From Hyphomicrobiales bacterium (GTDB taxonomy: Bacteria; Pseudomonadota; Alphaproteobacteria; Rhizobiales; JACESI01): a DNA stretch of 64,000 bases. The translations under genes and the position numbers were made by a program. The notes under the pieces are model-generated. The model worked only from the letters and a program-made list of their open reading frames with translations, did no database searches and was not told the origin of the DNA. Shown here piece after piece: positions 11,726-23,356 of this stretch. Location: positions 150,795 to 214,794 of the forward strand of contig JACESI010000005.1 of the NCBI GenBank assembly GCA_013911885.1. The letters are read 5' to 3'. The stretch's first letter is position 1. Every line of letters begins with the position of its first letter.

Positions 11726-12001
11726 ATGAACAAGAACGAGCTGGTTGCTGCCGTGGCAGACAAGACTGGTATGACCAAGGCTGCGGCTGGTGAAGCTGTC
11801 GACGCGACATTTGACGCCATTGCGGCAAGCCTTAAGTCGGGCGACGAAGTAAAGCTTCTGGGCTTCGGCAATTTCAGCGTAACCAGCCGGGCGGCGACGA
11901 CGGGCCGTAACCCACGCACAGGCGAGACGATCAATATCAAGGCGTCCAAAGCTCCAAAATTCAAGCCCGGCAAAGGCCTGAAAGACGCAATCAACGGCTG
12001 A
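11726..12001 (+). CDS. hupB: DNA-binding protein HU
   Basis: 91-aa ORF: MNKNELVAAVADKTGMTKAAAGEAVDA...GRNPRTGETINIKASKAPKFKPGK. Confidence 0.9.
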   Translation: MNKNELVAAVADKTGMTKAAAGEAVDATFDAIAASLKSGDEVKLLGFGNFSVTSRAATTGRNPRTGETINIKASKAPKFKPGKGLKDAING

Positions 12002-12037
12002 TAAAGCTGCTTTTTACGGGTGTTCGAAAGACGTTTT

Positions 12038-12070
12038 GACGAGGCTTTGGCAACAAAGCCTCGTTTTCTC
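12038..12070 (+). terminator. Rho-independent terminator after hupB
   Basis: GACGAGGCTTTG-gcaa-CAAAGCCTCGT followed by TTTCTC. Confidence 0.7.
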
Positions 12071-12184
12071 TTGCGCTTCTCACGATCGTCGTTGGAAGAT
12101 CAACGGACAGAGAGCGACGAAGGCAAGTTTCTTCAGAAAAAATCTTGCGTTCGGCAAGCATTTCAGGCTATGCCCATCGCGGTC

Positions 12185-12260
12185 GGGCGGTTAGCTCAGT
12201 TGGTAGAGCATCTCGTTTACACCGAGAGGGTCAGCGGTTCGAGCCCGTTACCGCCCACCA
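12185..12260 (+). tRNA. tRNA-Val (anticodon TAC)
   Basis: Acceptor GGGCGGT/ACCGCCC, anticodon stem TCTCG/CGAGA with loop TTTACAC, T-loop GGTTCGAGCC, CCA. Confidence 0.9.
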
Positions 12261-12272
12261 GTATCCCAGATA

Positions 12273-12324
12273 CTGCATCCAGCCATCGCATCCAGATATC
12301 GCATCCAGACATCGCATCCAGACA
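12273..12324. repeat. 13-bp tandem repeat, 4 copies, in the tRNA-Val/tRNA-Asp spacer
   Basis: ctgcatccagcca / tcgcatccagata / tcgcatccagaca / tcgcatccagaca, head to tail, with partial copies on both flanks. Confidence 0.85.
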
Positions 12325-12525
12325 TTGCGATAAGGGTATCGCGAAAATGCGGGCTCCGCTTGCGCAGACGGACATCCTTATCTTTCTTTACCCTTATTCT
12401 ATTGCGTGCCCGGGGGGTGGCAAAAGGCCATGAAAAATTGTTGATGCAGGCGCGTCTCGGTGCTTGACTTGCGAACACGGTTCCCGTAACCCACACGAAC
12501 GCGTCAGCAATGATGCTTAAAATGC

Positions 12526-12602
12526 GCGGGTGTAGCTCAGTCGGTTAGAGTGCCGGCCTGTCACGCCGGAGGTCGCGGGTTCGAGTCCCGTCACTCGCGC
12601 CA
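12526..12602 (+). tRNA. tRNA-Asp (anticodon GTC)
   Basis: Acceptor GCGGGTG/CACTCGC, anticodon stem CCGGC/GCCGG with loop CTGTCAC, T-loop GGGTTCGAGTCCCGT, discriminator G, CCA. Confidence 0.9.
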
Positions 12603-13115
12603 TTTTCTCTCGAAATGCGCAATAATACCCGTGATATTGTGGTCGCCGAAGCCGGCCTGATCGGCCTCCTGGAAAAGCGCATGCAATGTCGATGACAACG
12701 GAACGGCGGCGCCTGCCATACGGGCCAGGGCAGTGACATAGCCAAAATCCTTGGCCACCAGATCAATCGGAAACATTGGTGCAAAGGCCTGCGCGTTCAT
12801 GCTGGCGGCAGCCGCTTTTGCAGCGGGGCTGAAAACGGGCGTTTCACCGAGTATCGCTGATGCCGTCGCGCGGGGAATGCCCAGTTCTTCACCCATATCC
12901 CAAAAGGCCGACGACGCCTCATCGTCGCGCAGCATGGATAGAACAAGATCGGCGCCAGCCGCCGCCTCACGAGGACTGGCAGCAAGGCGCGCCCCCGCCG
13001 CTATCAGATCCACCGCGCGGTCGGGCATGCGATTCCACACGCGCAGTTCATGGCCCTCTGCGAGCAGGCGGGTCGCCATGCGCGATCCCATCGCGCCTAG
13101 TCCTAAGAATGCAAT
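12591..13115 (-). pseudogene. 3-hydroxyisobutyrate/6-phosphogluconate dehydrogenase-family oxidoreductase remnant (internal deletion, no canonical start)
   Basis: The Rossmann N-terminus (TQ)IAFLGLGAMGSRMATRLLAEGHELRVWNR...ADLVLSML joins directly to the C-terminal helical domain FPIDLVAKDFGYVTALARMAGAAVPL. It is about 170 aa, against roughly 290 expected. Codons upstream of the GLGAMG motif up to the stop at 13134-13136 contain no ATG/GTG/TTG. The stop codon overlaps the 3' end of tRNA-Asp on the opposite strand. Confidence 0.7.
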
Positions 13116-13248
13116 TTGGGTGACTGGCTTGTTTCAATCCTGTCAGGTCGAGGGCGCTGTTTGTGAAAACGCGAGTGCGTTCAGTTCGATAATGGATCGC
13201 CCAGAAAACGCAATAAATTATCGGTTTTGCAAATCATTCGTGCCATAA

Positions 13249-14224
13249 ATGCATGAAATGGATATTGCTCAACTCGCCTTGCTCGCTGATGTTTACCGCG
13301 CAGGCGCCTTCGCGCCCGTTGCGCGCACGCGCGGGCTCGCACCTTCGTCCATCTCGCGCGCCATCGCGGTCATTGAAGAAGAGATCGGTGCGCTTCTCTT
13401 CCAGCGCACGACTCGCGCCCTGACGCCCACCGATGCGGGTGAGGCCTTCTATTTACGCATCGCGCCCTTGGCCGAGGAATTTGAAGCCGCCCGCGCTCGA
13501 CGAGACGCGAGACAGAGCCTCGCGGCCATCAGTTCGGCTTCGGATCACGGCATCAGCAAGTTTTGGGCAAATCGTGCTCGCACCCCGGCTCAAGGCCTTT
13601 CGGGCGTTATATAGTGATCTGGCGATCGATCTTGTCTTGTCTGATGATGTTGTCGATCTCGTTGCTGAGCGAATTGATCTCGCGATCCGGCATGGGAGCC
13701 TTTCAGACACTTCGCTGATCGCGACGAAACTGAGCGATGTGTGTTATCGCCTTGTCGCGAGCCCTGATTATCTCTCTGGCGCACCGAAACTGAGCGCACC
13801 GCGCGATCTTGTCCATCACGCCACCATTGCTTTTGCGTATCAGAATTTTCGCACGCAGTGGACGTTTACTCGGGCGGGAAAGACTGAAAGCGTGTCGATT
13901 CCGCCGCAGATTACACTCAGCAACGCCGTGGCACTGCGTGAATGCGCGTGTCAGGGCCTGGGTCTTGCTCTGCTTGCCGACTGGACTGTGGCGCCTGACA
14001 TCGAGTCCGGACGGCTCGTGGAACCACTCGCCGATTGGTCCGCCTCAGGTGCTGACCAAGGCAGCGCAATTTGGCTGATCTGGCCGAGCCGACGTTTCGT
14101 TCCGGCGAAAGTGAGAGCTTTTGTGGATTGGTTGATGCTTGAGACTCAGGCCGACAAGGGCCGTAATGGTCAGCACGCGAGAGCGTTGATCAATCGTGCC
14201 GCTTCGGGTTGCGATGGCCGATAA
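13249..14224 (+). pseudogene. LysR-family transcriptional regulator, frameshifted
   Basis: The HTH half (ORF 13249..13614: LLADVYRAGAFAPVARTRGLAPSSISRAIAVIEEEIGALLFQRTTR) and the effector-binding half (ORF 13433..14224: LDETRDRASRPSVRLRITASASFGQIVLAPRL...) are in different frames. The switch falls in gccgcccgcg at about 13486-13495. It is divergent from the dehydrogenase remnant. Confidence 0.8.
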
Positions 14225-14294
14225 CGAAAGTGCTACGCGACAATCTCGGCTCCAATCATTCTGACCGATCATGGCGTTAATCTCGCCGTCATAT

Positions 14295-15794
14295 TTAGGA
14301 TTTCCGGGATTTCAGGAAGCGATCACCGATCGCAGGCGCAAGCGACCACAGAATGAAAACAAGCGCCAATCCGAGAATGGACGCACTGATCGGTCGTGTC
14401 AGGAAAACAGTCCAGTCCTGATGTGAATTTGCCATCGATGTCAGGAAATAACGCTCCGCCAGCGGCCCGAGGATGACCCCCAGTACCAGCGGTGCCGTTG
14501 GAAAGCCGATCCGTTTCATGCCCCAGCCAAGCACGCCGAAGGCAAGGCAGACATAGACATCGAAGATGTTGTTGCGCACACCGTAAGCGCCGATGACGCT
14601 GAGCACGATGATAAAGGCCGCGAGTATCGCCGGTGGCGTGCGCATCAGGGTTGAAAATGCCTGCGCCACGCCAAGACCCGCACCGATCATCAGAATATTG
14701 GCGAGGATCATCGCAGCAAAAATCGTATAGACCATGGCCGGATCGGTGATGAAGAGAAGTGGGCCCGGATTGACCCCATGCAGCATCATCGCGGCCAGCA
14801 TGATGGCGGTTGCAGCACTTCCGGGAATGCCGAGGGTGAGAAGCGGCACCATTGCGGCGCCCGTTGTCGCATTCTTTGCAGCCTCCGGCGCGGCGAGCCC
14901 GTCATCAATGCCGCTTCCGAAATCATTGCCATGTCTGGAGACCTGTTTTTCGATGCCATAGGCAATCACCGCGCCCGGCGTTGCGCCAGCGCCCGGAATC
15001 ATGCCGATCATGCAACCGATGCCCGTGCCGCGCAGGATCGCACCCTTGACGCCCCACAGGTCGGTGAACCGGGCGCCAATCGGCTTGCCGTCCGATTTTT
15101 TCGGGCGCAAATCCCGGCTTGTGGCGAGAAGGTCCACGACCTCGCCAATAGCGAACAGCCCGATCATGACGACGACAAAGCGGATGCCGCTTTCCATTTC
15201 TGCGATACCGAAGCTGAAACGCGCCTGACCATAGAGCGGATCAACCCCGACCGTGCCTACAAGAATGCCAAGAAGCAGCGAGACCATCGTGACGACGGGC
15301 TGATCCTTTGCAATTGCAATGACGCTGACGAGGCCGAGAAGCGTGGCCGCAAAGAACTCCGGCTGCGAGAATTTCAATGCGAAACTTGCAAATGGCGCGG
15401 ATAGAAATGTGAGCACAAGGGCGCTGACCAGACCGCCGACGGCAGACGCTGTGACGGCGATGGCGAGGGCGCGTTTGACTTCGCCGCGTTTTGTCATCGG
15501 ATAACCATCCCAAGTGGCGGGCAGGGATGCAGGCGTGCCCGGAACATTGATCATGATGGCGGAGATCGAACCGCCGAAAACACCACCGACATAAATGCCG
15601 CCAAGAAACAGCATGGATTGGGTTGGTGCCATGACATAGGTGAAGGGCAGCGCCATCGCCATCGCGTTGACGAAGGAAATGCCGGGCAATGCGCCCGCCA
15701 CCACGCCGACCAGCAGCCCCGTCACAATGGTCATGAACGACCAGAATTCAAACGCAGCCAGAAAGCCGCCGCCAAGGAGTTCCAACGCGTTCAT
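14295..15794 (-). CDS. tctA: Tripartite tricarboxylate transporter large permease TctA
   Basis: 499-aa polytopic membrane ORF with the TctA-family pattern, following tctC and tctB. Confidence 0.9.
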   Translation of the reverse strand: MNALELLGGGFLAAFEFWSFMTIVTGLLVGVVAGALPGISFVNAMAMALPFTYVMAPTQSMLFLGGIYVGGVFGGSISAIMINVPGTPASLPATWDGYPMTKRGEVKRALAIAVTASAVGGLVSALVLTFLSAPFASFALKFSQPEFFAATLLGLVSVIAIAKDQPVVTMVSLLLGILVGTVGVDPLYGQARFSFGIAEMESGIRFVVVMIGLFAIGEVVDLLATSRDLRPKKSDGKPIGARFTDLWGVKGAILRGTGIGCMIGMIPGAGATPGAVIAYGIEKQVSRHGNDFGSGIDDGLAAPEAAKNATTGAAMVPLLTLGIPGSAATAIMLAAMMLHGVNPGPLLFITDPAMVYTIFAAMILANILMIGAGLGVAQAFSTLMRTPPAILAAFIIVLSVIGAYGVRNNIFDVYVCLAFGVLGWGMKRIGFPTAPLVLGVILGPLAERYFLTSMANSHQDWTVFLTRPISASILGLALVFILWSLAPAIGDRFLKSRKS

Positions 15795-15810
15795 CTCGTT
15801 CCTTCTTTTG

Positions 15811-16410
15811 TCAGTAGATGCCGATTGTTCTCAGCAACCCGATGCTGAAGCCGTCGAAAGGCCCCTGTCCGCGCGGGAGCGGCATCAGGGCAAGCCCCAT
15901 GAACAGCCAGAGAAGGCCGAGCGTTCCCATGAGCGCTACCGGAACCACGATTTTCCAATCGCGCAGCCCGCCATAGATGCACCAGAGGGCGATGAACACG
16001 ACAGTCGCGATTGCAAAACCGATCTTGGCCAGAAGAAAGCCATAGGCAATGATCATGAAAAGCCCGACGAGTGCCTTGCCGAAATGATATTTTTCTTCTT
16101 CAACCGGTGCCTGCAACAGGGGCGTGCTGCTGCCCCGTCGCAACGCCCAAAGGTCGATGGCAATCCACAGGAGGGCGAAGAAAGCAAGGCCATAAAGCAT
16201 CGTATTGGGCCATGCCGCAGGCCCGAGGCCGATATCGCTTGATCGCTGAACGGATTTGAACATCTGCCCCGGCAACACAACCGCGAGGATGAGAATCCCT
16301 ATTGGCACCAGTGTTGGAAGCCGGTCACGTATAGTGCTGATACCGGAGGACGACGGCCCTCCGGTCTTTGTGGTGAATGCGGCGATCCGCGTTTCTTTCT
16401 CCCGATCCAT
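15811..16410 (-). CDS. tctB: Tripartite tricarboxylate transporter small permease TctB-family protein
   Basis: Hydrophobic ORF of up to 199 aa between tctC and tctA. The start is uncertain because the family is usually about 150 aa. Confidence 0.7.
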   Translation of the reverse strand: MDREKETRIAAFTTKTGGPSSSGISTIRDRLPTLVPIGILILAVVLPGQMFKSVQRSSDIGLGPAAWPNTMLYGLAFFALLWIAIDLWALRRGSSTPLLQAPVEEEKYHFGKALVGLFMIIAYGFLLAKIGFAIATVVFIALWCIYGGLRDWKIVVPVALMGTLGLLWLFMGLALMPLPRGQGPFDGFSIGLLRTIGIY

Positions 16411-16422
16411 CGGATGTGTCTT

Positions 16423-17370
16423 TTATTTTGCGAGCTGGTTTGCGATGAGATCGCGGAAATCCCGCACCATGGCCTGCGCCGCATCGCCGGTAATGGGGGT
16501 GATGCAGGTATAGGTCTTGGCGCAGAAGGCCTTCCAGTCGTCTGATGCCGTCGCCGTTGCCACCGCAGCCTCGAGTTTCGCAACAATATCCGCAGGGGTT
16601 GCGGCTGCGACAGCGACCGTGCGGTAATTGTCGAGGCCGGAAATGTCGATGCCGAGTTCTTTGGAGGTCGGAACATCCGGAAACTCCTTGTGGCGCTCCG
16701 CTGAGAAAACAACGACGGGCTTCAACTGTCCTGCCGCAATAAACTGAGCAACATCGCCCGGTTCCTCATAGATTGCTGCCGTATGACCGCCAATCGGCGA
16801 GGCATAGCGCTCTGCCGGAGCCTGAAACGGAACATTCTCCATTTTAATTCCGGCTTTTTCCAGAAGCTTCAGCGTTACGTCATCCTGTGTGCCATAGCCC
16901 GATGTCGCAACCGTGATCGCGGCCGGATTGGCCTTGGCGAAATCGAACAATTGCTGTGCCGTCTGGTGCGGGCTTGCTGCCGGAACGAACAGGAACGAGG
17001 GTGAACTCTGGACAACGGAGATGACCCGGAAATCCTCAGGTTTGTTGTCCCCCAGTCCTGACGCCCAGGAGGCAACGGTCAAGGAGATCAACGTGCCCAA
17101 TGTGTAGCCGTCGGCGGCGTTGGTGCGAAGCTTGGTCAGCCCCGCATTGCCGGAAGCGCCGGCAACATTTGAAACGGGAACGGCAATACCCAGCGATTTT
17201 TCAAGCAGTTTCGCCATCGTGCGGCCCATCAGGTCAGCGCCGCCGCCTGGTCCGAAGGTCACGACCATTTCGACCGGGCGGTTCGGATAGTCGAGGGCAG
17301 AAGCGGTATGGGTCATTGCTACTGCCAGGACGGCAGCGCATATAGCGGATTTTCCGAAAAGTCTTTTCAT
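16423..17370 (-). CDS. tctC: Tripartite tricarboxylate transporter substrate-binding protein (Bug/TctC family)
   Basis: 315-aa ORF with a signal peptide MKRLFGKSAICAAVLAVAMTHTASA, then YPNRPVEMVVTFGPGGGADLMGR, typical of Bug/TctC. Confidence 0.9.
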   Translation of the reverse strand: MKRLFGKSAICAAVLAVAMTHTASALDYPNRPVEMVVTFGPGGGADLMGRTMAKLLEKSLGIAVPVSNVAGASGNAGLTKLRTNAADGYTLGTLISLTVASWASGLGDNKPEDFRVISVVQSSPSFLFVPAASPHQTAQQLFDFAKANPAAITVATSGYGTQDDVTLKLLEKAGIKMENVPFQAPAERYASPIGGHTAAIYEEPGDVAQFIAAGQLKPVVVFSAERHKEFPDVPTSKELGIDISGLDNYRTVAVAAATPADIVAKLEAAVATATASDDWKAFCAKTYTCITPITGDAAQAMVRDFRDLIANQLAK

Positions 17371-17455
17371 GGTTTCCTCCCTTGTGAAAATGTTTCAGGC
17401 CTGATCAAAAGGCTCAGTCTATTGAAAGTCTCGGCGACGCACTCCCTCAAGTACA

Positions 17456-18982
17456 TCATGGTTTTCCTGTGATTTGGGCCAGTCGCAGGCGCTGGATTTT
17501 CCCCGAGGGTCCTTTCGGCAGTTCCTCCAGAAAATGGATCGTATCGGGTGACTTGAATTTCCCGAGCTTGCTCTTGCAAAGTTCAACCAGTGTTTCGCAA
17601 CTCACCTGCGCGCCGTCGCGCAGTGTCACGGCGGCCTCAACGCGCTCGCCATAGGTGGCGCAGGGGCGGGCGAAAGCCGCCGCCTCGATGACGTCGGGAT
17701 GCGAATAAAGCGCCTCATCGACCTCGCGCGGGGCGATATTCTCGCCACCCTTGATGATCAGTTCTTTCAGCCGCCCCGTGACGTAGACATAGCCGTCCTT
17801 GTCCATCCGGCCAAGGTCGCCGGTGCGCAGATAGCCATCGCTGGTCAGCGCCGCGTCGGTCGCTTCCGGGTTGCGGAAATATTCGAGCATGACATTCGGT
17901 CCGCGAACCGCGATTTCGCCCTCTGTTTCCGGCGGCAGAACCTGAAGTTCCTGTGACAGGATTGCGACAATGTTGCCGTAGGCAATGCCGGGCGAGCCGA
18001 TCTTGCGCATTCCCGGTGGTAGCGGATTGGAGAGAATTTGCGCCGCGGTCTCTGTCAGCCCCATGGTCTCGACGATGGGAATGGCAAAGCGCGTCTCAAA
18101 GGCGGATTGGGTTTCCACGGCCAGGGCGGAAGAGGCTGAGCGCCCGAAACGTATCCGTTCCCGCGTCGCCAGATCGGGGTCACGATCCCCGTGCAGTAAA
18201 TGCGAAATGATGGTTGGGACGACCGAGAACCACGTGATATCGAAATCCCGGCAGTCCGACCAGAACCGGCTTGCTGAAAAACGCTCGCAGACGACGACTG
18301 ACCCGCCTGAAACCAAAGGCGCGATGATTGTTACACAAAGGCCGTTGATGTGATAGATCGGCAGGACGCACAAGGCGCGGTCTGACGGCGACAAGGCGTG
18401 GGCGATGGTCGGTGTCCATCCGCCGGCAAGAAGGCTCGCGTGGCTGTGCAGCACGCCTTTCGGTCGCCCGGTCGTCCCGGATGTATACATCAGGATGGCG
18501 TGATCTTCGGGCCTGAGGTCTGCAAGGCCAGCCTTGCTGGCGGGCAAAGGCCATTCAATGGCTTTTCCGACGCGGATTGTTTCAATGGTGATATCATGCG
18601 CTGCCTTTGCGGCCTGATAGAGTCCGTCCTGTGTTTCGCCGAGAAGCAGGCATTGTGCGCCGCAATGACTGAGCGTATAGCCGATTGCTTCCGCGCCTGC
18701 GCCCAGATTGATGATCGCCGTGCGAAAGCCCCCATATAGCGCGCCGTAAAGGCAGAGAATAGCCATGCGACTGTTCGGCAGCATCAGCGCCACGCTGTCA
18801 CCTTTCGAAAGGCCCATGCCAGCGAGATGCGCCGCGATATCGGCAGCGTCCGCGCGCAGTCCTGCCCATGTCAGCGGCGCGTCATCCGGAAAGAGATGGC
18901 TGATCGTCGCCCCGTCGTGCGCCGCGCGCCGGTCAAGCCAGCTTCGGATGGTTCCCTGCGGGGCTGTGCCGACGTCGATCAT
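17456..18982 (-). CDS. AMP-forming acyl-CoA synthetase/ligase (class I adenylate-forming enzyme)
   Basis: 508-aa ORF: MYTSGTTGRPKGV, YHINGL, TGDLGRMDKDGYVYVTGRLKELIIKGGENI, PKGPSGKIQR. The start overlaps the stop of the upstream aldehyde dehydrogenase by 4 nt. Confidence 0.9.
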   Translation of the reverse strand: MIDVGTAPQGTIRSWLDRRAAHDGATISHLFPDDAPLTWAGLRADAADIAAHLAGMGLSKGDSVALMLPNSRMAILCLYGALYGGFRTAIINLGAGAEAIGYTLSHCGAQCLLLGETQDGLYQAAKAAHDITIETIRVGKAIEWPLPASKAGLADLRPEDHAILMYTSGTTGRPKGVLHSHASLLAGGWTPTIAHALSPSDRALCVLPIYHINGLCVTIIAPLVSGGSVVVCERFSASRFWSDCRDFDITWFSVVPTIISHLLHGDRDPDLATRERIRFGRSASSALAVETQSAFETRFAIPIVETMGLTETAAQILSNPLPPGMRKIGSPGIAYGNIVAILSQELQVLPPETEGEIAVRGPNVMLEYFRNPEATDAALTSDGYLRTGDLGRMDKDGYVYVTGRLKELIIKGGENIAPREVDEALYSHPDVIEAAAFARPCATYGERVEAAVTLRDGAQVSCETLVELCKSKLGKFKSPDTIHFLEELPKGPSGKIQRLRLAQITGKP

Positions 18983-20394
18983 TGCCCGACCTCCGCCCAG
19001 TAATTGCCGAAAATATCTTCAAGGGCTGGTTCGCGCGGCGGGATCGGACGGATAATTTTCGTGCGCTGCATGAAATGACGCCAATGCAGGTTGTCATCGA
19101 TTGAATTGCCGCCCCAACTGCCGCAGCCCATGGAGAGCGAGAACGGCAGTCCGTTTTCAAAGCTGCCGCCAGTTGCGAATGTGTGCGCCTGATTGACGAT
19201 AACCCGACAGGTCGGCATGGACATGCCGAGGGCGACCGGTCGATCGGCCCGCGCTGTATGAATACCGAGAGAATGGCCGGCACCCTGATGCGCCATGATC
19301 CGGCGGGTGATGCGAACCGCATCGTCATAATCGCGCGCCCGATAGAGCGCTGCGACCCGGCTCAGTTTTTCGCCGGAAAGCGGATGGCTGTTTCCGATGC
19401 CCGCAGTCTCGACCGCGACAAACTTGGTGCCAGTCGGCACTTTGCCGGACAGGTCGAGCTTCTCGATCATCACATCGGCATCCCGTGCGATCACTTCACG
19501 GTTCAGATGCCCTTCCGGCCAAAGCTTTTCGACAATACCCGACGCTGCCGCCGGTGGCAGATAGGCGCCGCCTTCCGCCGCCAGCGCATCGATAAAGCGA
19601 TCAAAGATCGCTTCCACCACGACAATGGCATTTTCCGACGAACAGGAAGTGGCATTATCGAACGTTTTCGAAAGCGTGATCTTTTTGGCGGCTGCGGCAA
19701 GATCAGCGGTTTCATCGACAATCACGGTGACATTGCCCGCACCAACGCCAATCGCCGGTGTGCCACTCGAATAGGCGCGGCGCACATTGTCCTGGCTGCC
19801 GGTCACGACGGCAAGGTCGGCGCATTCCAGAAGGCGCTGCGTATCGGCTTTGGTTCCGGGCGGAGGTACCATTTGCACAAGCCGTTTATCCTCGCCAATC
19901 TTGTCAAATTCCGCGTGGATGTAATCAAGCAGCAATGCGCAGCAGGCAACCCCCTTCGGCGACGGCGAGACGATGATCGCGTTGCCGCATTTGAGGGCGT
20001 TGATGATGTTGTTGGCGGGGGTTGCAGCAGGGTTGGTCGAGGGAACCACAGCGCCGATCACCCCGATGGGGCGGGCAATTTCGATGATCCCGGTTTCCGG
20101 ATCATCGGAAAGGATGCCGAAAGTATGCGCATTCTTGATATCCCGCATCAGGCCAAGGGTCTTGCGGTGATTTTTGGTGATCTTGTCCGCAACATTGCCA
20201 AGCCCGGTGCTTTGTACAGCCAATTCGGCAAGCGCGCGGTTGCGCTCCGGTTGCATGATTGCCCATGCCGCCGCCTGCGCCGCCCGGTCAAAACGCGCCT
20301 GACTTCCGGCTGTCTCATAATTCGCCTGGGCGATCCGGGCCTGTTCGATCAGATGATCAACCGGATTTGGCTCGTTTCGGATTTCAGGCCGCAT
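18979..20394 (-). CDS. CoA-acylating aldehyde dehydrogenase (SucD/EutE-like)
   Basis: The 761-aa ORF 18979..21264 is trimmed to the ATG at 20394 (MRPEIRNEPNPVDHLIEQARIAQ..., 471 aa); the upstream part is antisense to lacI. Motifs: VPSTNPAATP, SSGTPAIGVGAGN, TFDNATSCSSE (catalytic Cys), SMGCGSWGGNS. Confidence 0.85.
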   Translation of the reverse strand: MRPEIRNEPNPVDHLIEQARIAQANYETAGSQARFDRAAQAAAWAIMQPERNRALAELAVQSTGLGNVADKITKNHRKTLGLMRDIKNAHTFGILSDDPETGIIEIARPIGVIGAVVPSTNPAATPANNIINALKCGNAIIVSPSPKGVACCALLLDYIHAEFDKIGEDKRLVQMVPPPGTKADTQRLLECADLAVVTGSQDNVRRAYSSGTPAIGVGAGNVTVIVDETADLAAAAKKITLSKTFDNATSCSSENAIVVVEAIFDRFIDALAAEGGAYLPPAAASGIVEKLWPEGHLNREVIARDADVMIEKLDLSGKVPTGTKFVAVETAGIGNSHPLSGEKLSRVAALYRARDYDDAVRITRRIMAHQGAGHSLGIHTARADRPVALGMSMPTCRVIVNQAHTFATGGSFENGLPFSLSMGCGSWGGNSIDDNLHWRHFMQRTKIIRPIPPREPALEDIFGNYWAEVGQ

Positions 20395-20438
20395 ATCATT
20401 TCCCGCGCGGTTTTGCTGCTTGCATCCAACGGTAAGCC

Positions 20439-20466
20439 ATGAAAATAGTATTGCAAATGTTTTCAT
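20439..20466. promoter_or_regulatory. Imperfect 28-bp palindrome in the divergent lacI / operon control region (candidate operator)
   Basis: ATGAAAAtagtaTTGCAAatgTTTTCAT has 7-bp perfect outer arms around a central TTGCAA. It lies between the aldehyde dehydrogenase start (20394) and the LacI gene. Confidence 0.3.
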
Positions 20467-20547
20467 AAAACGACCAGAAATTGCTATATTATGATTATAA
20501 AATAATCCTATAAGGTTGATATTATCACCGTCGCCCAAGTTGCGCGT

Positions 20548-21546
20548 GTGTCCCCTGCGACGGTTTCGCGTGCGCTTAACCATCCCAATCTCGTCAGTCC
20601 GAAAACCCGCAAGCGGGTCGAGGATGCCATCCGCAAGACCGGCTATATCCGCAATCGGGCGGCGCAGGCGATGCACGGACGGCGCAGCGCCACCATTGGC
20701 CTTGTGGTTCCCACCATGAACTTTTCGATTTTCGCGGAGCTTGTTCAATCCTTCAACGATGCCGTGACCGAACTCGGCTTCACGCTTCTGCTTGCAACCC
20801 ACCGCTATGATCTCAAGACCGAGTATCAGCTGCTGCGCAAATTCCTTGAGCACCGGGTGGATGGTCTTGCCCTTATCGGGCTCGACCATAATGTAGACAC
20901 CTACAAGCTGATCGAAACCCAGAATGTTCCGGCGATTGCGGCGTGGAGTTATTCGGATCATTCGGCGATTTCCTGTGTCGGCTCCGATAACGGCGAGGCA
21001 GGGCGTGTTGCGGCCCGGCATATCCTGTCGCTTGGCCATCGTCGGATCGGCTTCGTGTTTCCGCCAACAGAAGGAAATGACCGCGCAAGGAGCAGGCAGG
21101 CGGGAGTGATCGAGACGCTCCGCAGCGCGGGGGTCGAAGTCCCTGAAGCATGGGCGGTGCGCTCGCTCTACAGCATCGCCCAATCGAAAGCAGCGTGCCT
21201 TGATCTTCTCCAAAAGCCGCATCCGCCAACCGCGCTGATCTGCGGCAATGACATCATTGCGCAAGGGGCAATCTATGCCGCGATGGAATGCCGCATGCGC
21301 GTTCCGAACGATCTTTCGATCATGGGCATCGGCGATTTTGCCGGCTCATCCGATATGGTTCCGGCACTTTCAACGATTCGTATACCAGCGCAGAAAATTG
21401 GCCTTCAGGCCGGAAGCCATCTCATCGAAAGCATCATTAATCATGACCAGAGACCGATCCTCAGGATCAAGATCGACGCGGAACTGAAAAGCCGCAGCAC
21501 GACGGCGCCACCCCGGGGAGATCAGGCAAGCGGTTTTTACTCCTGA
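20548..21546 (+). CDS. LacI-family transcriptional regulator (start unresolved; HTH homology extends upstream to about 20515)
   Basis: The ORF from GTG 20548 reads SPATVSRALNHPNLVSPKTRKRVEDAIRKTGYIRN and then a periplasmic-binding-fold domain. The in-frame upstream codons encode (KVD)IITVAQVAR, which is HTH helix 1, but contain no ATG/GTG/TTG after the TAA at 20503. Confidence 0.8.
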   Translation: MSPATVSRALNHPNLVSPKTRKRVEDAIRKTGYIRNRAAQAMHGRRSATIGLVVPTMNFSIFAELVQSFNDAVTELGFTLLLATHRYDLKTEYQLLRKFLEHRVDGLALIGLDHNVDTYKLIETQNVPAIAAWSYSDHSAISCVGSDNGEAGRVAARHILSLGHRRIGFVFPPTEGNDRARSRQAGVIETLRSAGVEVPEAWAVRSLYSIAQSKAACLDLLQKPHPPTALICGNDIIAQGAIYAAMECRMRVPNDLSIMGIGDFAGSSDMVPALSTIRIPAQKIGLQAGSHLIESIINHDQRPILRIKIDAELKSRSTTAPPRGDQASGFYS

Positions 21547-21705
21547 TTGCGGTCCGCATCGTGTGACTGATCGCATCGCGGCCCGACTGCTCTATTTGAC
21601 CGCCATTTCTATAACGGCGCATTGCTTATGGCAAAACCGCTTGCCGGGTGTGAAACGCTTATTTCAGAATTATTGTTCTGTTAATCTGAGCGTATACGGC
21701 TCGAC

Positions 21706-21965
21706 CCCGGCTTCCGCCAAGCGTTCAGTCGGCAGCCTTCGCGACGAGTGTCTCAACGAGGAAATCTTCGACAGTCTGGCCGCCGCCCGCCGCGCCCTGG
21801 GGTCCTTTGGCGCTACGACTACAACAATGTCGGCCTCATTCCGCGCCGGGCAAACAGACCCCGGCCGAAGCGCACCGGACGATTGAGCAATCTGATGGCT
21901 CCGCGCCCGGCGCGCTTGCCTAAGCCGAAACCGACCACTGTCAAACCCAGGGACTCTCATTATGA
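21706..21965 (+). mobile_element. IS3-family transposase (OrfB) C-terminal remnant, degraded
   Basis: GSLRDECLNEEIFDSLAAARRAL, then (frameshift) WRYDYNNV, then (frameshift) RPHSAPGKQTPAEAHRTIEQSDGSAPGALA, then TAA, then AETDHCQTQGLSL. Only about the last 85 codons survive, and there is no intact IS. Confidence 0.8.
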
Positions 21966-22345
21966 ACGAGGGGCGACATGAACGAGGGCGACCGGGGGGC
22001 AGGCCATATTCAAGCTTCCAACGCACTGATGGGACGTCTTGATTTTGAATTGTCACATCAAGTCAATGAAATGATTGTGCTTTGTCTCTGATTATTTTTC
22101 AAATAAAAATTCACTGATTTTTCGAATCATATTAGTTGTGCCAGGCTATATTGATTTTCGTGATTAAAAAAACGGCATCATTGGCACACAAATATAAAGC
22201 AACAGCCGCTTTTACAAGCATGCAACTTTTTTCCCCTTAAATATGTTGCTGAGAAGGCACATTGATCAAGGAACTCTCCTCAGAAACGTCAATATTTGAA
22301 AACTACATTGATTTTTTGTTCAGAAAAGGATTCTCTATTGGTCGA

Positions 22346-22359
22346 TAGTGAATTCACTA
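22346..22359. promoter_or_regulatory. Perfect 14-bp palindrome upstream of the porin gene
   Basis: TAGTGAATTCACTA, 60 nt upstream of the ATG at 22420, inside an AT-rich promoter region. Confidence 0.3.
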
Positions 22360-22419
22360 GTTACCTGTGATGTTCCGGTTCCGGAAACCATCCTAAAATA
22401 TAAAAAATGGAGATGTCCC

Positions 22420-23226
22420 ATGAATAAACTGTTGGTCCAATCCCTCATCGGTATTGCGGCGATGATGGTTGCCAGCTATTCGTCAGCAGCGGATCTTGAA
22501 GCTGTTGCGGCGCCGGAAGCAGAAGCTGAGAGCAAGTCGTTCCTGCCCGGCGAATTCTCCGTCTCTGCCGGTGTTTATACAGACTATCGCTTCCGCGGCA
22601 TTTCACAGACAGACAGCGGTCCCTCTGTTCAGGCATTACTTGGTTGGTCCGTCGAGACTCCAGTCAAGGGTGTTAACTTCGATATTGGTCTTTTTGCTTC
22701 CAATATCAACTTCACGCCAAACGATTTGACCGGTGATCCGGATGACGGCTCGATTGAAATCGACTACAATGCCGGTTTCTCTGGCACGATCAAAGACATC
22801 AACTGGGCCCTTGCTGCCTATTATTACCATTATGCGGATGCCGATAGCTCTTTGAATTTCAATTATTATGAAATTGCTGTTTCGGTTGACAAGGACGTCT
22901 ACGAAGGTCTCAATGTTGGCCTGAACTACTTCGGTACTCCGGAATACTTCGGTGAAACCGGTACCGCTCACTGGATTCAGGCAACGGCTGCCTATGAAAT
23001 TCCGGGCTTGGACCTCATCCCTCTCTCAATTGATGGTTCGGTTGGCTACCAGTTTTTTGAAGGTGATGGCGATTATCTGACATGACACGTCGGTCTGACT
23101 GCCGCCGTGCATGAGCATGCATCGCTGGGTGTTCAATACATCGATACAAACACGACCGTCTTCAATGCAGACAATGTGAACATTGCAGATGCGGGTGTGA
23201 TCGGTTTCTTTACTGTGAACTTCTAA
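22420..23226 (+). pseudogene. TorF/Gcw_chp-family outer-membrane porin interrupted by an in-frame TGA
   Basis: GGAG RBS and signal peptide MNKLLVQSLIGIAAMMVASYSSAA. The family motif is SAGVYTDYRFRGISQTDSGPSVQ. A TGA at 23083-23085 falls in ...GDGDYLT*HVGLTAAV..., and the same frame then continues for 46 codons to a beta-barrel terminus GFFTVNF and a TAA at 23224. Confidence 0.75.
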
Positions 23227-23247
23227 GATTATATAGCGTTCAAATGA

Positions 23248-23282
23248 AAACCCCGGTGCTGAGCAAGGCGCCGGGGTTTTGT
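23248..23282 (+). terminator. Rho-independent terminator after the porin gene
   Basis: AAAACCCCGG-tgctgagcaaggcg-CCGGGGTTTT. Confidence 0.7.
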
Positions 23283-23356
23283 CCTATTATGCCCGCCTCG
23301 TATCACCCGGCTGATTTATCCTTTCCTGTTTTCGTGCAGCGGCATATGAATTTCTC

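Follow-up and report, generated by a model that had tools for sequence, protein, structure and literature searches.

A locus of five co-directional genes and one divergent regulatory gene in a Hyphomicrobiales bacterium (GenBank assembly GCA_013911885.1) is very probably a sulfoacetate utilization (sau) operon of the 'sauS-sauT plus TTT importer' type, in which the importer belongs to the tripartite tricarboxylate transporters (TTT). This reading draws on the genes present, the families to which they belong, their conserved linkage and the conservation of the operator. The locus occupies positions 14295-21546 of a 64,000-nucleotide stretch of contig JACESI010000005.1 (C14:150795-214794), hereafter the window. 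Sulfoacetate is a widespread organosulfonate that arises from the breakdown of plant and algal sulfolipid headgroups and from taurine, and identifying its uncultured marine users aids sulfur-cycle bookkeeping. Many public records label such genes 'aldehyde dehydrogenase family protein', 'AMP-binding protein' and 'tripartite tricarboxylate transporter', and the assignment also allows these to be renamed. The features of the locus, with predicted products, are as follows.

18979-20394, minus strand: sauS, acylating, coenzyme A (CoA)-dependent sulfoacetaldehyde dehydrogenase, 471 amino acids (aa) (Pfam Aldedh; NCBIfam NF047625)
17456-18982, minus strand: sauT, predicted AMP-forming sulfoacetate-CoA ligase, 508 aa (Pfam PF00501, AMP-binding, and PF13193, AMP-binding_C)
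16423-17370, minus strand: sauZ-type TctC, periplasmic solute-binding protein, 315 aa with signal peptide (Pfam PF03401)
15811-16410, minus strand: TctB-type small membrane subunit (one of SauX/SauY), 199 aa (Pfam PF07331)
14295-15794, minus strand: TctA-type large permease (one of SauX/SauY), 499 aa (Pfam PF01970, 464 bits)
20491-21546, plus strand: LacI-family regulator with TAA at codon 5 (20503-20505) (Pfam LacI and Peripla_BP_1/3/4)
20439-20466, no strand assigned: predicted 28-bp operator, ATGAAAATAGTATTGCAAATGTTTTCAT, with a LacI-type 14-bp core palindrome at 20452-20465 (conservation)
20429-20456, minus strand: predicted sauS promoter, with -35 TTGCAA at 20451-20456, a 16-nt spacer and -10 TACCGT at 20429-20434 (conservation)

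All six open reading frames (ORFs) of 14295-21546 were recovered by ORF listing and translation. Together with the Pfam matches, they bear out an earlier note, made from the letters alone, that had described five co-directional genes running from 20394 to 14295 and a divergent LacI-family gene. The 4-nt overlap that the same note had read between the dehydrogenase stop and the ligase start is also present (ATGA, 18979-18982). Its gaps of 12-16 nt hold for tctC-tctB (12 nt) and tctB-tctA (16 nt) and fail for sauT-tctC, where 85 nt separate the genes. A site scan found no terminator-like sites in any intergenic gap of the operon, and neither a significant fold (z -0.45) nor an RNA element was detected in the 85-nt spacer; across the region, Rfam matched only two tRNAs (12185-12257 and 12526-12599). 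The five structural genes are all full length relative to orthologues and free of internal stops. An identical gene order recurs in dozens of genomes in the survey of TctC loci described below, and the arrangement is thus far beyond chance. From this layout we infer that sauS through tctA are co-transcribed.

The dehydrogenase and the ligase

The dehydrogenase scored 681.2 bits against the NCBIfam equivalog NF047625 (AcylSulfactDhSauS; cut-off 600 bits), aligning to model positions 5-464 of 464. Its second-best NCBIfam family was AdhE, at 338 bits (cut-off 951), and it is the sole protein of the genome that exceeds the NF047625 cut-off. Orthologues from Sulfitobacter alexandrii and Paracoccus aminovorans scored 684 and 681 bits against the same model, and the SauS of a Caballeronia locus with the order IclR-sauS-sauT-MFS (MFS, major facilitator superfamily transporter) scored 800 bits. 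The Caballeronia protein is 54% identical to the window SauS, and the two have the same NATSCSSEN segment, which includes the TSCSSEN cysteine motif. The closest solved structures (SucD, AdhE aldehyde-dehydrogenase domains and acetylating acetaldehyde dehydrogenases) are all CoA-acylating; grouping with non-acylating enzymes, which the earlier note had said would speak against its reading, was not found. By profile and structural kinship, the window dehydrogenase is classed as SauS, on the CoA-acylating branch.

The ligase matches PF00501 (236.5 bits) and PF13193 (61.5 bits), as expected of an ANL-superfamily adenylating enzyme. When the Caballeronia SauT-type ligase was searched against this genome, the best match was the window SauT (350 bits, 40% identity), followed by a paralogue at 231 bits. 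The reverse search of five betaproteobacterial genomes with the window SauT gave best matches of 392-453 bits and 43-46% identity, with second-best matches of at most 204 bits; for two loci (L101 and L079) the best match was confirmed by coordinates as the sauS-adjacent ligase. In a maximum-likelihood tree, sauS-linked ligases including the window SauT group together, apart from the four paralogues of this genome, and the group contains a Paraburkholderia protein named by its source 'putative sulfoacetate--CoA ligase'. Profile and tree searches of the kind that the earlier note had proposed place the dehydrogenase above the SauS cut-off and the ligase among sauS-linked ligases. Among solved structures, the ligase is closest to oxalate-CoA and malonyl-CoA synthetases, a kinship consistent with a small di-acid substrate such as sulfoacetate. 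By the tests run, judged against the sauS-adjacent ligases of Caballeronia and betaproteobacteria, the ligase is a predicted SauT orthologue.

The importer and its genomic linkage

The importer genes encode a complete set of TctC, TctB and TctA together (PF03401, PF07331 and PF01970). To survey their contexts, an alignment of the window TctC and its relatives was scanned against one genome per species, and the best 80 of 129 relatives (55-83% identical to the window TctC) were taken with 10-kb flanks. SauS is encoded in the flanks of 66 of these 80 loci, SauT in 63 and SauCD in 6. The earlier note had called for a neighbourhood survey for the aldehyde-consuming step, and here xsc stands immediately after tctA in 10 of the 80, most of which continue with pta and a SoeA homologue. 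Several of the SauS-less loci are short contigs of 3.4-4.9 kb. The window TctA is 63-91% identical to the TctA proteins that adjoin SauZ-type TctC in surveyed loci, and the window TctB is 55% identical to the S. alexandrii orthologue in the same position.

Annotated plasmid loci show the same associations. A plasmid of S. alexandrii has the same architecture as the window operon, and one cluster on an Azospirillum plasmid unites genes for an IclR regulator, pta, tctCBA, sauS, sauCD, a soeABC-like trio and xsc, with a TctC 57% identical to that of the window. On a P. aminovorans plasmid, LacI-sauS-sauT-MFS lies a few genes from xsc, pta and a gene annotated as a putative sulfate exporter. The surroundings are different for TctC relatives at 42% identity, of which one occurs with TauE and another with an amidohydrolase. 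Since contexts differ at 42% and are sau-linked at 55%, the boundary of the SauZ-type clade lies between ~42% and 55% identity. The 50%-cluster representative of the window TctC is 52% identical and sits on a 2.4-kb contig. By its identity to the surveyed proteins, the window TctC belongs to the clade whose members are encoded near SauS together with SauT or SauCD.

The SauZ (TctC) of Bilophila wadsworthia binds sulfoacetate with a Kd of 0.13 µM and binds neither isethionate nor 3-sulfopropanoate (Liu et al. 2023, PMC10413351). Close SauZ homologues in alpha- and gammaproteobacteria are mostly encoded beside SauT and nearly always beside SauS, with Xsc nearby or elsewhere (PMC10413351). The earlier note had deduced import, AMP-forming CoA activation and reductive aldehyde release by analogy with SauT/SauS, and that scheme was right. 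Its statement that the substrate could not be named is overturned: a SauS equivalog, a TTT type shown to bind sulfoacetate and a published linkage (PMC10413351, PMC12625764) point to sulfoacetate. Orthologues with a defined substrate, which the note had listed as a finding that would count against its unknown-substrate claim, are thus already characterized.

Two further observations concern these loci. Two cluster representatives of 908 and 619 aa (P0249 and P0250) have a C-terminal SauZ-like TctC domain, 48-50% identical, and could be real fusions or merged gene calls. On the S. alexandrii plasmid (L015 15137-15931), a gene for an oxidoreductase of the short-chain dehydrogenase/reductase (SDR) family follows directly after tctA of the identical sau operon; its product might reduce sulfoacetaldehyde to isethionate.

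Proposed pathway and its downstream step

In the proposed pathway, the SauZ-type TctC would capture periplasmic sulfoacetate for uptake through the TctB/TctA membrane pair. SauT would then convert sulfoacetate, ATP and CoA to sulfoacetyl-CoA with release of AMP, and SauS would reduce the thioester with NAD(P)H to sulfoacetaldehyde. Xsc and Pta, both encoded elsewhere in the genome, would respectively turn sulfoacetaldehyde into acetyl phosphate and sulfite and make acetyl-CoA. Candidates for sulfite handling are a SoeA homologue and TauE-family proteins, also encoded elsewhere, and the divergent LacI-family protein is a predicted repressor that would act on a 28-bp operator overlapping the sauS -35 box. 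An AMP-forming ligase and a binding-protein-dependent importer both point to degradation, so the pathway would run in the degradative direction.

Xsc is absent from the window, as the earlier note had observed. Its gene lies on the same contig ~50 kb upstream of the sau operon (C14:114708-116486; 961 bits, equivalog cut-off 676) and is directly followed by that of Pta (343 bits, equivalog cut-off 311), the pair spanning C14:114708-117496. The SoeA homologue is 60% identical to the copy in the Azospirillum cluster, and three TauE-family genes were found. A few kilobases downstream of xsc-pta (C14:121600-124400; L018 16638-19438) are genes for a MocR-type regulator and a TauA-like binding protein, the latter scoring 177 bits, under the 304-bit cut-off. 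These neighbours suggest a taurine-type sulfonate input feeding the same Xsc. The picture is one of Xsc as a core hub for C2 sulfonates and of the sau operon as an accessory feeder.

A conserved, predicted operator and an interrupted regulator

Of the 80 surveyed loci, 37 have a divergent LacI-family gene beside sauS-sauT, and most of these are from Rhodobacterales-type alphaproteobacteria. Five plasmid loci (Sulfitobacter, Paracoccus, Ruegeria, Alisedimentitalea and Tateyamaria) also have such a gene. The window regulator is 53-69% identical to the divergent LacI proteins of sau loci (Rhodobacterales and others). Betaproteobacterial and Azospirillum loci have IclR-type homologues in their flanks instead. 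The LacI type is the standard regulator of the alphaproteobacterial sau version, and the earlier note's view that such a regulator is slightly unusual here does not stand.

A 28-bp element, ATGAAAAC-R-TTTGCAA-NN-CT-R-TTTTCAT, occurs in each of the 43 LacI-linked sau loci examined, and its distance from the regulator start is constant. Over 41 distinct sequences the element has a mean information of 1.80 bits per position, against 0.46 in the 40 nt flanking it on one side and 0.36 in the 45 nt on the other. Its core, TGAAAAC-R-TTTGCA, is a palindrome typical of the LacI family. No second copy was found near xsc or elsewhere in the genome, with up to 6 mismatches allowed. A TAnnnT hexamer stands at a fixed offset from the operator, 16 nt downstream of TTGCAA; its T, A and final T carry 2.0, 2.0 and 1.7 bits, and neighbouring positions are unconserved. 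We infer that TTGCAA and TAnnnT form the -35/-10 pair for sauS, with the -35 box inside the operator, where a bound repressor would block it. A consensus promoter scanner did not list this predicted promoter, and its single match (plus strand, 20462-20490) was not above chance expectation. The conserved operator could serve as a simple marker for the alphaproteobacterial sau version.

Orthologous regulators begin M-K-K-Q-S-Y-K-V-D, encoded by ATG-AAA-AAA-CAR-TCN-TAT-AAR. The window regulator reads ATG (20491) ATT ATA AAA TAA (20503) TCC TAT AAG GTT GAT, with TAA replacing the glutamine codon CAA/CAG, and its remaining 346 codons are open. Both the helix-turn-helix and the effector domain are encoded, but the in-frame TAA at codon 5 lies between the ancestral ATG and the helix-turn-helix. 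A deletion within the helix-turn-helix was considered and ruled out, the motif being complete in the orthologue alignment. The first canonical start after the TAA is GTG 20548, from which the product would be without helix 1. The LacI-family assignment made in the earlier note is correct (Pfam LacI and Peripla_BP). A public sequencing-run assembly also has a contig with a gene call for exactly the same truncated product; the run is possibly of the same sample, and the support is weak. The codon-5 nonsense change has likely abolished repression, barring translation restart at a non-canonical codon, and the sau operon may be constitutive in this genome.

We somewhat favour a broader model in which the LacI protein is an undescribed repressor responsive to sulfoacetate (or sulfoacetyl-CoA) that binds the 28-bp operator over the -35 box and replaces the IclR type of Burkholderiales and Azospirillum. 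It would move as one unit with sauS-sauT, with exchange of the importer among two unrelated TTT systems and an MFS transporter, and the codon-5 stop would make the acquired operon constitutive here.

Genomic context of the locus

The segment from 12.0 to 23.3 kb of the window (~11 kb) is not syntenic with a same-genus genome, the break occurring on both sides. It begins at the two tRNA genes and holds decayed genes, the sau operon and the regulator. A clean tRNA-flanked insertion was ruled out, because the flanks lie 171 kb apart in the same-genus genome, as at a rearranged junction. The 12000-23300 patch looks like one that was laterally acquired or rearranged.

Two neighbouring genes are broken. 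A LysR gene now consists of two ORFs, one for the helix-turn-helix (13249-13614) and one for the substrate domain (13433-14224). Beside it, a 3-hydroxyisobutyrate-dehydrogenase-like gene has lost its middle part and has Pfam matches at both ends only (window 12591-14224 for the two genes). The genome itself is small, at 2.75 Mb.

By its ParC protein the genome belongs to an uncultured Hyphomicrobiales lineage, the best named matches being metagenome-assembled genomes at 83% identity. This ParC shares 68-69% identity with its counterparts in Salaquimonas, Anderseniella and Marivita, in contrast to 72-89% for the sau proteins against Marivita and Salaquimonas. Three same-genus genomes carry another sau version, with identities of 61-64% for SauS, 54-55% for SauT and 31% for TctC and with the gene order of the second TTT system described below. 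In the ligase tree, the window SauT is nested among Rhodobacterales and the same-genus copy branches outside them. Lateral acquisition of the sau locus is the simplest reading. The same-genus genome G003 (L122) joins the LacI-sauS-sauT core to the second tctA-tctB-tctC system, and its TctC is 31% identical to that of the window.

Alternative readings

Several points weigh against the sulfoacetate assignment. NCBIfam holds no SauT model, and the window and Caballeronia ligases match generic ligase families only, all under cut-off. Identity between the window SauT and the Burkholderiaceae SauT-type ligase is only 40%, and 40-47% across Burkholderiales-type ligases; the ligase tree has few outgroups, and these sit on long branches. 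The Cupriavidus necator SauT is absent among the 120 matches listed for the Caballeronia ligase query, which carry Caballeronia, Paraburkholderia, Trinickia or other Burkholderia-group names or are unnamed. No deltaproteobacterial TctC is among the best 80 of 129 relatives, and the B. wadsworthia SauZ thus lies outside the surveyed set. Xsc occurs in 9 of 9 genomes of the taxonomic family and SauS in 4 of 9, all of one genus, so the presence of Xsc does not by itself tie it to the sau operon. Finally, with the regulator interrupted and nearby genes decayed, the locus could be heading for loss.

The same route of import, activation and reduction could serve another small acid, such as malonate, oxalate or 3-sulfopropanoate; the products from the first two would be malonate semialdehyde and glyoxylate. 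The oxalate-CoA and malonyl-CoA synthetases among the closest solved ligase relatives fit this idea, as does the lack of a curated SauT model, and TctC specificity is unreadable from sequence, with 42%-identity relatives in unrelated contexts. Against it, the dehydrogenase exceeds the SauS equivalog cut-off, 10 of the 80 loci with this TctC type have sulfonate-specific neighbours, namely xsc and, in most cases, pta and a SoeA homologue, and the characterized SauZ rejects 3-sulfopropanoate and isethionate. The window genes that were examined, and those of the annotated plasmid loci, included none recognized as belonging to a malonate or oxalate pathway, and we regard a substrate other than sulfoacetate as very improbable. 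Still less credible is an oxidative direction, in which taurine-derived sulfoacetaldehyde would be converted through sulfoacetyl-CoA to sulfoacetate for excretion. SauS-type enzymes are reversible, a reverse route with the ADP-forming SauCD has been proposed in other bacteria (PMC10413351), and the TauA-like protein and MocR-type regulator near xsc suggest a taurine-type input. Yet the ligase is AMP-forming and, from knowledge of its family, effectively irreversible, TTT systems as a family need a periplasmic binding protein and act as importers, and the Xsc encoded in this genome consumes sulfoacetaldehyde directly.

A further explanation holds that the locus is a recently acquired, decaying island whose regulated pathway function is gone in this organism. 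In its favour stand the regulator TAA at codon 5, the adjacent LysR gene in two ORFs, the neighbouring dehydrogenase gene without its central part, the non-syntenic 12.0-23.3 kb segment and the small 2.75-Mb genome. We nevertheless consider it unlikely: the five structural genes are full length without internal stops, apart from the TAA, the regulator ORF is unbroken, with 53-69% identity to orthologues, and loss of a repressor would lead to constitutive expression, not to loss of the pathway.

Comparison with known systems

Clusters of sauST with a TTT importer were termed 'hybrid type' in 2025 and include those of metagenome-assembled genomes of sponge symbionts (PMC12625764). The hybrid sauS-sauT plus TTT clusters (PMC10413351 Fig. 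6; PMC12625764) have the same three modules as the window operon, with no difference in kind, and many members encode Xsc elsewhere in the genome (PMC10413351, PMC12625764), as is also the case here. LacI is unmentioned in the text of PMC10413351 and PMC12625764, and the words 'regulator' and 'GntR' do not occur in the former either, whereas the window locus has an interrupted LacI gene and the 28-bp operator. The cluster type is thus already published (2023 and 2025), and the additions made here, namely the LacI regulator, the operator and importer swapping, are modest.

The B. wadsworthia cluster SauXYZ-SauS-SauCD-TauF-IseG shares with the window the TTT importer type and the reduction of sulfoacetyl-CoA by SauS (PMC10413351). 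It differs in activation, which there uses the ADP-forming two-subunit SauCD and would here use the AMP-forming SauT, and in the fate of the aldehyde, which in Bilophila passes through isethionate to glycyl-radical cleavage (PMC10413351) and in this genome would go to Xsc, a thiamine pyrophosphate (TPP) enzyme. As summarized in PMC10413351, sauRSTU with xsc/pta of C. necator H16 (Weinitschke et al. 2010) has the same SauT, SauS and Xsc sequence of steps, with sauS before sauT and a divergent regulator; according to the same summary its importer is the single-gene MFS transporter SauU, whereas that of the window is a TTT system. The Burkholderiaceae locus of Caballeronia NK8 has an IclR-type regulator, in contrast to the LacI type of the window, and a ligase 40% identical.

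The Rhodobacterales LacI-sau loci with other importers share the LacI regulator, the operator and the sauS-sauT pair with the window. Plasmids of Ruegeria, Alisedimentitalea and Tateyamaria (L022, L023 and L024) carry a second TTT system in the order tctA-tctB-tctC, with a TctC 33% identical to that of the window, and in P. aminovorans (L017) LacI-sauS-sauT is combined with an MFS transporter; the same operator is present in these three plasmid TTT loci and in L017.

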